From Microbotryum violaceum (taxonomy: Eukaryota): DNA of 64,000 nt. Shown piece by piece: positions 52,734 to 53,726 of this stretch. Position 1 is the stretch's first letter. The number at the start of each line of letters is the position of its first letter. The notes under the pieces are model-generated. The model was not told the DNA's origin. It worked only from the letters and a program-made list of their open reading frames with translations, and did no database searches. Location of the stretch: positions 310,001 to 374,000 of the forward strand of contig CDLV01000010.1 of the NCBI GenBank assembly GCA_001244265.2, given 5' to 3'. Position numbers and translations under genes: made by a program.

Positions 52734-53726
52734 AAGACAAAAATGCCCTCGAAAGAAAGCGAAAGGACAAAAATGCCCTTCTCAAAAGGACAACTAAAGT
52801 ATGCCTTCGGATTCTCGACTTGGGTAACACTTGATATGTCAGCTCACAACCAAGAGGTTAGCTTCTTGTAGTCGTTGTGATCAGCGCCGTATATCTCCAG
52901 AGATGCCGTGAGAAGTCATTTAGTTATCTGGGTCACAAAGTCAGGGGCCTCATCGATCGTCGACGCGTCGAGGCGCAACAGTTTGCGAATCGACGTTGGC
53001 CTCCTTCCGCATTCTCGTCCCGTCCCGACACCGAAGTCAACTCCGGTTCTCGACGATGGAATATCGTTTCAAAAAGGGGGGCAATATTTTACGAAAAGAA
53101 GGAGCTCACGGATGCAGGCTATCGATATGCCCTTGATCACCAGTTTCAGCTCAACGTTCCGAGTCGCAAGTCTGACGTTCGCAAGTTGGACACGCGGCTT
53201 CATCAAAGACAGTGATGGTCCAAACACTGCCTTCTCCTTTGGAAACAGCAGTGGCAGAGAAGGCGCACGGAGGGTCTTGCTCACTCTTGCACACGACGTG
53301 CCAACGACGCGCGTCAGACTTGCGACTCGGAACGTTGAGCTGAAACTGGTGATCAAGGGCATATCGATAGCCTGCATCCGTGAGCTCCTTCTTTTCGTAA
53401 AATATTGCCCCCCTTTTTGAAACGATATTCCATCGTCGAGAACCGGAGTTGACTTCGGTGTCGGGACGGACGAGAATGCGGAAGGAGGCCAACGTCGATT
53501 CGCAAACTGTTGCGCCTCGACGCGTCGACGATCGATGAGGCCCCTGACTTTGTGACCCGGATAACTAAATGACTTCTCACGGCATCTCTGGAGATATACG
53601 GCGCTGATCACAACGACTACAAGAAGCTACCCTCTTGGTTGTGAGCTGACATATCAAGTGTTACCCAAGTCGAGAATCCGAGGGCATTTTTGTCCTTTCG
53701 CTGTCTTTCGAGGGCATTTTTGTCTT
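52734..53726. mobile_element. Foldback derivative of a Mutator-like (MULE) DNA transposon: inverted arms 52734-53177 and 53312-53726 around a 134-bp spacer
   Basis: Arms are near-identical reverse complements with repeated subterminal GACAAAAATGCCCT. The minus strand encodes GAIFYEKKELTDAGYRYALDHQFQLNVPSRKSDARRWHVVCKSEQDPPCAFSATA...WTITVF, resembling the MuDR/FAR1 N-terminal DNA-binding domain. Confidence 0.75.

Follow-up and report, generated by a model that had tools for sequence, protein, structure and literature searches.

Does a fungal genome carry a counterpart of Mu killer? To our knowledge, the natural loci at which a genome first recognises and silences a DNA transposon are few and all found in plants, with Mu killer (Muk) as the classic case. 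The question is raised by a foldback at positions 52721-53739 of the window, i.e. the whole stretch of 64,000 nucleotides (64 kb) of Microbotryum violaceum DNA that was analysed. In a preliminary description, this foldback was proposed to be a young, Mu-killer-like inverted duplication of the 5′ end of a MULE. The locus has a Mu-killer-like form in a rearranged, dead MULE-like element and, on the analysis given below, it is a candidate natural hairpin silencer in a fungus.

Structure of the foldback

Arms and spacer were delimited by global alignment and by repeat search. With both methods, the segments 52734-53177 and 53312-53726 were found to be reverse complements of each other, separated by a spacer of 134 nt (53178-53311). 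Repeat search returned the inverted pairs 52801-53020/53468-53687 (220 nt, 99%), 53020-53177/53312-53469 (158 nt, 100%) and 52721-52779/53681-53739 (59 nt, 88%). Following global alignment within 52734-53177, three arm-to-arm substitutions were obtained (52757 A/C, 52858 T/G and 52929 T/C), together with a single 1-nt indel at 53019, within a C run, and a 28-nt insertion carried by the left arm only (52779-52806). Arms, spacer and differences are the same as those previously read by eye, and the inverted-repeat structure is real and far beyond chance. Divergence between the arms is about 0.7%, i.e. they are about 99% alike.

The left arm body (52807-53177, plus strand) is an inverted copy of the 5′ UTR and the first codons of a transposase remnant, and is 99-100% complementary to 53312-53680. 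The latter segment is the right arm body (minus strand), which was assigned the parental orientation from the arm alignment and the repeat search. The spacer is made up of a junction segment of 18 nt (53178-53195), which is unlike the family continuation and pairs imperfectly with the opposite arm, and a single-copy part (53196-53311, minus strand), which is colinear with other copies of the family and encodes the second half of the DNA-binding-domain remnant.

Self-search of the 64-kb window yielded no second copy of the element or of its peptide elsewhere. The CpG observed/expected ratio in the arms was 1.27-1.32, i.e. without CpG depletion. The RIP-like process of Microbotryum is marked by TCG-to-TTG changes (10.1101/2022.08.03.502670). 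Using the index from that source, a log2 value of about 0.3 was obtained for the arms, within a range of −1.0 to 1.0 for 1-kb segments of the window, and no RIP-like footprint was seen.

Terminal repeats and target site

All four copies of the motif GACAAAAATGCCCT contained in the 64-kb window are located at the element ends (expected number 0.02; four occurrences were reached in none of 100 shuffles). The motif lies within a 30-bp subterminal unit, of which tandem-repeat analysis gave two per element end (period 30, 2.0 copies). The left terminal inverted repeat (52721-52779, plus strand) consists of two such units, each with GACAAAAATGCCCT, and is complementary over 59 nt (88%) to the right terminal inverted repeat (53681-53739, minus strand), which likewise consists of two 30-bp units. 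Terminal inverted repeats with subterminal repeats, a characteristic of MULEs, are thus present at both ends. An extra, degenerate third unit of 28 nt (52779-52806, plus strand) is found in the left arm only, as established from the arm alignment and from independent contigs.

As the terminal 30-bp unit is present in two copies at either end, the inverted similarity reaches 52721 and 53739, about 13 nt beyond the coordinates of the preliminary description. A different family copy in the independent contigs loses similarity exactly at 53726, so the functional terminus may nevertheless sit where it had been placed before.

Target-site duplications of MULEs are about 9-11 bp long. A candidate duplication of 9 bp was located on the left at 52716-52724, where it includes 4 nt at the outer edge of the inverted similarity, and the same 9-mer is present on the right at 53749-53757. 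This 9-bp repeat is offset from the proposed ends, and a direct match of at least 9 was obtained in 38 of 5000 control pairs of 51-nt window zones. Given this offset, its assignment as a target-site duplication is uncertain. No matches were found for the terminal 22-mer in a metagenome scan; in a metagenome profile scan 19 stretches were matched, none of which was confirmed.

Coding remnant

Right arm and spacer together contain an open frame on the minus strand (53151-53564). Residues 48-96 of its translation were matched by the Pfam family DBD_Tnp_Mut (PF03108) with E = 0.0014 and 18.7 bits, which is below the curated cut-off of 25. The other two of the three ORFs tested matched nothing in Pfam, and PF03108 was reached by only one of six family sequences. 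Protein-atlas feature matches, which are leads and not proof, comprised DBD_Tnp_Mut clusters in 19 of 30 cases (residues 45-124); the top scores were 0.92, 0.92 and 0.90, with 189, 185 and 184 of 256 features shared, and FAR1/AFT clusters ranked below the DBD_Tnp_Mut clusters. The AlphaFold single-sequence model of the domain had a pLDDT of 58.4, too poor for fold testing. A Foldseek search of this poor model against the PDB (0 of 408 rows at E ≤ 0.001) was uninformative, as was a PDB sequence search with the domain (0 matches).

Judged from these comparisons, the minus-strand remnant is a probable MuDR-type (WRKY-GCM1-like) DNA-binding domain. It spans 79 codons (53196-53432, minus strand) and was delimited using the PF03108 match, the best atlas match and the relatives P0001, P0003 and P0005. 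The N-terminal domain that had been claimed for this frame thus gains modest support, and no DDE domain was found that would connect the family to MULEs.

The presumed original start codon of the transposase lies at 53431-53433 (minus strand), where the relative P0005 begins with a matching methionine; the mirror copy in the left arm was placed at 53056-53058 (plus strand) from the arm pairing. P0005 runs from this methionine straight into the domain. In the foldback, the frame of the domain is devoid of methionine and the presumed ATG is +1 out of frame with it in both arms, and the frameshift is therefore older than the duplication.

Translation of the family continuation from codon 122 (53196) onwards runs into H-G-C, which completes a zinc finger of the type C...C...H-x-C, and P0001 and P0003 continue like the family contigs. 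The closing H-x-C is missing from the foldback copy. With the ATG in a different frame from the domain and the last zinc ligands missing, no protein can be encoded. The frame break in the absence of a DDE domain was confirmed as first described; similarity to the family breaks at 53195/53196, 18 nt inside the spacer. By ORF and Pfam analysis, no DDE transposase domain was found in the element. Such a loss is expected of a non-autonomous derivative, but it means that membership of the MULEs rests on other features.

Verification by independent short-read contigs

All or part of the stretch was present in 20 of 24 listed sequencing runs, from seven studies and three organisms. Contigs were compared from four DNA runs, each from a different study: X1 and X2 (organism A), X13 (organism B) and X15 (organism C). 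The left junction, including the left-specific 28-nt unit, was crossed in X1, X2 and X13 by a contig covering 52000-52836. This contig showed 0 differences from the window in X1 and X2, and five substitutions and one gap in X13, those listed all being located in the flank. It ends 30 nt into sequence shared by the arms, as expected of a 31-mer graph. In organism C (X15), the left junction was uncovered. The right junction was crossed in all four runs by contigs extending from 53652 (53600 in X15) to 54074-54103.

The possibility of a long-read chimera had been raised from the outset. Both flank junctions were reproduced by the independent short-read contigs, and with the unique flanks joined to the element ends across three organisms, the foldback is very unlikely to be an assembly chimera and is not a strain-private event. 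The inner junction (53177/53178) was covered by none of the 32 contig pieces listed, and the fold-back point is taken from the window assembly.

The exact arm piece 52947-53124 had depths of 478, 97, 31 and 15 in X1, X2, X13 and X15, respectively, compared with 219, 42, 22 and 5 for the left flank. For the exact spacer piece (53206-53341 in X1; 53206-53366 in X2 and X13), depths were 268, 65 and 20. These values agree with a genome carrying two arms and a single spacer; contig depth, summed or single, is not copy number. The exact contig 52947-53124 carries the left-arm form of the indel at 53019.

The flanks of the insertion differ by less than 1% among the three organisms, and the divergence of the arms is of the same order. 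The duplication is young in absolute terms, as proposed, but it is not private to a strain, the insertion being common to three organisms in four studies. That the arms are about 99% alike despite this shared insertion could be due to any of three causes, namely recent origin, gene conversion or constraint.

Family copies and relatives

Using phmmer against 1.84 billion representatives, five proteins were obtained at E ≤ 0.001, none of which has a catalytic domain. Four of these, from Microbotryum silenes-dioicae and M. saponariae, are short ORFs of 59-212 aa; in alignment they are pieces of the family to which the element belongs, broken by frameshifts. P0004, a repeat protein of 772 aa, is the remaining one and was discounted as a match probably owed to chance or composition. 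Among longer proteins, a profile search gave a single match, the 643-aa M. silenes-dioicae model P0007, in which the family fragment is C-terminal and follows a long unrelated N-terminal part, with no precomputed Pfam family and no MULE catalytic part; P0007 was read as a chimeric gene model and not as a full-length partner. No full-length partner was present among the 207 candidates of a single-sequence search restricted to longer proteins, and no autonomous or intact relative with a DDE domain was found among the candidates of the three protein searches. Transposons are often masked in gene predictions and the candidate lists were of limited length; for these reasons the searches are weak evidence that no autonomous partner exists.

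At the nucleotide level, 102-119 contigs per run were 85-99% alike over a 2.5-kb stretch, some of which belong to a separate high-copy repeat at 54016-54435 in the same stretch. The base at 53274 differed from the window in 8 (X1), 4, 4 and 6 variant contigs per run. Contigs of about 88% likeness, three each in X1, X2 and X13 and two in X15, matched 53196-53325 and diverged onward. Summed contig depth, which again is not copy number, was far above that of the flanks over the element (up to about 10,700 versus about 219 in X1). The element family is multi-copy and diverged, and the window copy is a minority variant. A joint between opposite strands in X2 (53131 to 53279) was considered as a second foldback; given that either arm can stand for the other, a 78-nt deletion explains it just as well, and it was assigned to a parental-orientation copy with this deletion.

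Genomic surroundings

The left-hand neighbour of the element is a conserved gene of 158 aa (51978-52454, minus strand), the start codon of which is 266 nt from the element end. It was recognised by its homologues, 19 of which were retrieved at E ≤ 0.001 among 69 candidates, one being the window's own protein. All named homologues are from Microbotryomycetes (three rows were nameless), the closest being those of M. saponariae (76%) and M. intermedium (62%), with other Microbotryomycetes ranking next. No Pfam family was found in the 158-aa protein. Its direction of transcription leads away from the element, as does that of the predicted ORF on the right (54433-55515, plus strand).

With both neighbouring ORFs facing outward, read-through from a flanking gene into the element is unlikely, and any transcript would consequently start inside the element or arise from bidirectional promoter activity. 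Transcription from the neighbouring promoter had been suggested. The gene starting at 52454 is indeed real, as judged from its homologues, but its direction makes a Muk-style read-through unlikely.

The surroundings are gene-dense, with ornithine decarboxylase (50149-51357), CDC45, an RPN2-like proteasome subunit, ThrE, DJ-1, Med5 and hydrolases. No transposon domains were detected by Pfam in 25 further window ORFs scanned, the matches being to ordinary housekeeping genes, and the sole Rfam match was an unrelated, sub-threshold snoRNA (52102-52143). MULEs insert near the 5′ ends of genes (PMC6446971); given this preference, the position of the element needs no further explanation. The GC content of the window is 55.5%, and that of M. 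lychnidis-dioicae is 55.4% (PMC4469406).

Origin of the inverted duplication

One copy of the family's 5′ end lies on the minus strand in parental orientation, from 53739 down to 53196, and comprises the terminal repeat, the leader and some 122 codons of the N-terminal zinc-finger domain. The first 430 nt or so of this 5′ end are repeated as an inverted copy at 52721-53177. The remainder of the parental element, including any DDE catalytic domain, is absent. As the preliminary description had recognised, such an inverted duplication of the transposase 5′ region matches the published architecture of Muk (PMC3440606).

The locus is very probably a real MULE-derived foldback. The reading that we prefer, and consider probable overall, is that of a dead, non-autonomous and internally rearranged MULE derivative, situated between two outward-facing ORFs in a gene-dense Microbotryum region. 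As to function, we infer that the locus is most likely a neutral relic. The high likeness of the arms in an insertion common to three organisms, together with their lack of CpG depletion and of a RIP-like footprint, speaks against this reading.

The inverted duplication would most likely have been formed by repair of a double-strand break or gap following an attempted excision, or by template switching during replication, with one element end serving as the template for both broken ends. The arm bodies are much more alike than are the two ends in their outermost 13 nt and in the extra 28-nt unit, a pattern suggesting that the parent's original other terminus is retained as the left tip, with the converted tract running from about 52807.

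Predicted hairpin RNA and silencing

When folded as RNA, the 1,019-nt element was predicted to adopt a single long hairpin (minimum free energy −905 kcal/mol), as had been anticipated. In maize, the ends of MuDR act as inward-facing promoters. If the terminal regions of the present element still do so, each transcript would span an arm, the spacer and the inverted arm. Such transcripts would give rise to a near-perfect hairpin of about 370-440 bp, a substrate for Dicer, the products of which would be siRNAs matching the diverged family copies.

The machinery proposed for this pathway is reported at the level of the genus, one Dicer, two Argonautes and one RdRP having been described, all expressed, for M. 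lychnidis-dioicae (PMC4469406). No study of Microbotryum small RNAs was found in the literature searched, mostly outside subscription journals. The locus might make siRNAs, although we lean towards the opposite; measurable silencing of the family in trans is improbable.

The claim at stake is that of a natural Mu-killer-like hairpin in a basidiomycete, maintained in sibling anther smuts at a single site close to a gene, and we would put little weight on it at present. Convergent transcription from the element's own two terminal promoters would then feed Dicer, and the resulting siRNAs would keep the whole MULE family silent. If this is true, family-wide silencing could explain why degenerate copies alone are seen, and the locus would act as an inherited 'vaccination' of a fungus against a DNA transposon. 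Should siRNAs be made, a tractable fungal model of DNA-transposon trans-silencing would be at hand; should none be made, the locus would be an ordinary by-product of transposon repair and a well-defined example of foldback formation. As the locus is apparently common to related taxa, natural carriers could be set beside engineered deletions.

Alternative readings

A working Mu-killer-like locus would be transcribed from its own terminal promoters or from the bidirectional promoter of the neighbour, and the hairpin would be diced into siRNAs silencing MULEs in trans. The architecture agrees with that of Mu killer, a near-perfect hairpin is predicted and RNAi genes are reported within the genus; in addition, tens of related sequences are possible targets, the gene-rich chromatin is presumably open and the arms are about 99% alike though the locus is common to three organisms. 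This reading is nevertheless unlikely in our judgement: an autonomous or intact family member was not found and the relatives are frameshifted fragments, the neighbouring ORFs face outward, so that no flanking promoter reads in, and the arms are about one third of the roughly 1.3-kb Muk duplication. The arms could alternatively be the long TIRs of an ordinary mobile, non-autonomous element, Tm1-like and present in several copies, with transposase supplied from elsewhere. Subterminal units, a possible 9-bp target-site duplication and a multi-copy family would be in line with this, and Mutator-related foldback families with 9-bp duplications are known (PMC3169594). Yet the arms contain inverted coding sequence, depth relative to the flank is about twofold for the exact arm and about onefold for the exact spacer, and contigs matching 53196-53325 continue in parental orientation without folding back; members sharing long composite inverted termini, by which a foldback family would be recognised, were not found among the 32 contig pieces listed. 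We therefore give a long-TIR element a small probability.

An assembly artefact, whether a long-read foldback chimera or a collapsed repeat, would be consistent with the inner junction being covered by none of those 32 pieces and with the arm difference at 53019, which sits in a C run, a typical place of consensus errors. The palindrome, however, is internal to the 64-kb window and bordered by unique flanks, the flank junctions including the arm-specific 28-nt unit recur in independent contigs from several studies, depth is about double for the exact arm and single for the exact spacer, and the arms differ at defined sites. Because the palindrome is internal, asymmetric and provided with verified unique flanks, an artefact is rated as very unlikely. 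Co-option as a cis-regulatory or insulator element of the two flanking, outward-facing ORFs could be envisaged from the location 266 nt upstream of the start codon of the conserved gene and from an insertion common to three organisms, but the data hold no regulatory indication and MULEs insert near the 5′ ends of genes anyway (PMC6446971), so that this role is hardly to be expected.

Comparison with known systems

The preferred reading, a dead and rearranged MULE derivative, was set against four groups of described elements. In Microbotryum genomes, TIR elements make up about 0.42% of base pairs on average, and MuDR and MuLE are among the annotation classes used (10.1101/2022.08.03.502670). 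Compared with these annotated elements, the present locus is distinguished by its foldback, no foldback or hairpin derivative being described in the available part of that report. No fungal Mu-killer-like locus was found in the literature searched, mostly outside subscription journals.

Tm1 of root-knot nematodes is Mutator-related and has 9-bp target-site duplications, many of its members being without transposase (PMC3169594). The present element resembles Tm1 in its long inverted termini and its lack of a transposase, and may do so in its candidate 9-bp duplication. However, the termini of Tm1, as far as they are described in that source, are composite repeat arrays of a mobile family, whereas the arms here are made up of leader and coding sequence that is unique, and among the 32 contig pieces listed their exact form was seen at one locus only.

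Inverted Ac/Ds duplications of maize, formed by alternative transposition, were proposed to start siRNA silencing of the family (10.1101/2020.01.07.897926). These are likewise rearranged DNA transposons with an inverted duplication. They differ from the present locus in belonging to the hAT superfamily and to a plant, and in that silencing is reported to have been shown experimentally, whereas the fungal case was deduced from sequence.

[quoted passage not shown] Muk silences MuDR dominantly; the antisense transcripts associated with silencing start within the locus, and sense transcripts read in from amy4 (PMC3440606). As in Muk, both ends of the present element are transposase-proximal and the 5′ region of the transposase is partially duplicated in inverted orientation, with the caveat that the outermost 13 nt and the 28-nt unit differ, so that the left tip may be the parent's other end. 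The arms here are about 0.43 kb long, unlike the roughly 1.3 kb of mudrA in Muk, and the flanking ORFs point away, whereas Muk is read into from amy4. The host is a basidiomycete and the element, described at the sequence level, has no known active autonomous partner. Finally, in contrast to Muk, the present locus is common to related taxa and is not newly arisen.

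Sequence variants of the foldback and its relatives

The spacer of the foldback, the rearranged MULE-like remnant, was compared with the family, that is, the multi-copy diverged relatives recovered as contigs from the four independent short-read runs (X1, X2, X13 and X15). Within the region 53260-53300, nearly all family contigs differed in base from the window at positions 53274, 53280 and 53281, and did so in all four runs; the progenitor of the foldback was therefore a minority lineage of this family. The 1-nt difference between the arms (53019 in the left arm, ∼53469 in the right) was located within a run of C. 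Because the left-arm form at 53019 was present in an exact independent contig covering 52947-53124, at approximately double depth in each of the four runs, the deletion in the right arm may be a consensus error or be private to the assembly of the window.

The M. silenes-dioicae relative P0007, located outside the window, is a 643-aa gene model of which a C-terminal fragment belongs to the MULE-like family of the foldback, while its long N-terminal part carries no precomputed Pfam family. The model probably reflects a transposon insertion, either nested or adjacent, that was annotated together as one gene.

Repeat and genes flanking the foldback

To the right of the foldback, a 79-bp tandem repeat (54071-54284; 2.7 copies, 98% matches) lies inside a segment of ∼420 bp (54016-54435). 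Independent contigs from X1, X2, X13 and X15 all showed this segment to be very high-copy, the summed contig depth reaching up to ∼15,000 versus ∼200 in the unique flanks (X1). Since contig joints in the repeat skip 90 or 169 nt, the number of 79-bp units is suggested to differ between strains. Because ∼300 nt of single-copy sequence lie between the foldback and this segment, the segment probably belongs to another repeat family.

To the left, a 158-aa gene (51978-52454, minus strand) matched no Pfam family. A homologue search yielded 19 matches at E ≤ 0.001 out of 69 candidates, the window's own protein being counted among the 19, and all named homologues were from Microbotryomycetes (Microbotryum, Sporobolomyces, Leucosporidium, Rhodotorula and Phenoliferia).

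Further along the window, two neighbouring plus-strand ORFs (60133-61020 and 62500-63363) both matched the Pfam families Abhydrolase_3 and Say1_Mug180; they probably represent either a gene duplicated in tandem or exons that belong to paralogues.

Right of the element, a long ORF was predicted on the plus strand (54433-55515), with a hydrophobic, signal-peptide-like stretch after the first methionine and no family found in Pfam. This ORF may encode a small secreted protein. For M. lychnidis-dioicae, a passage in PMC4469406 reports that genes for secreted proteins are located closer to transposons.
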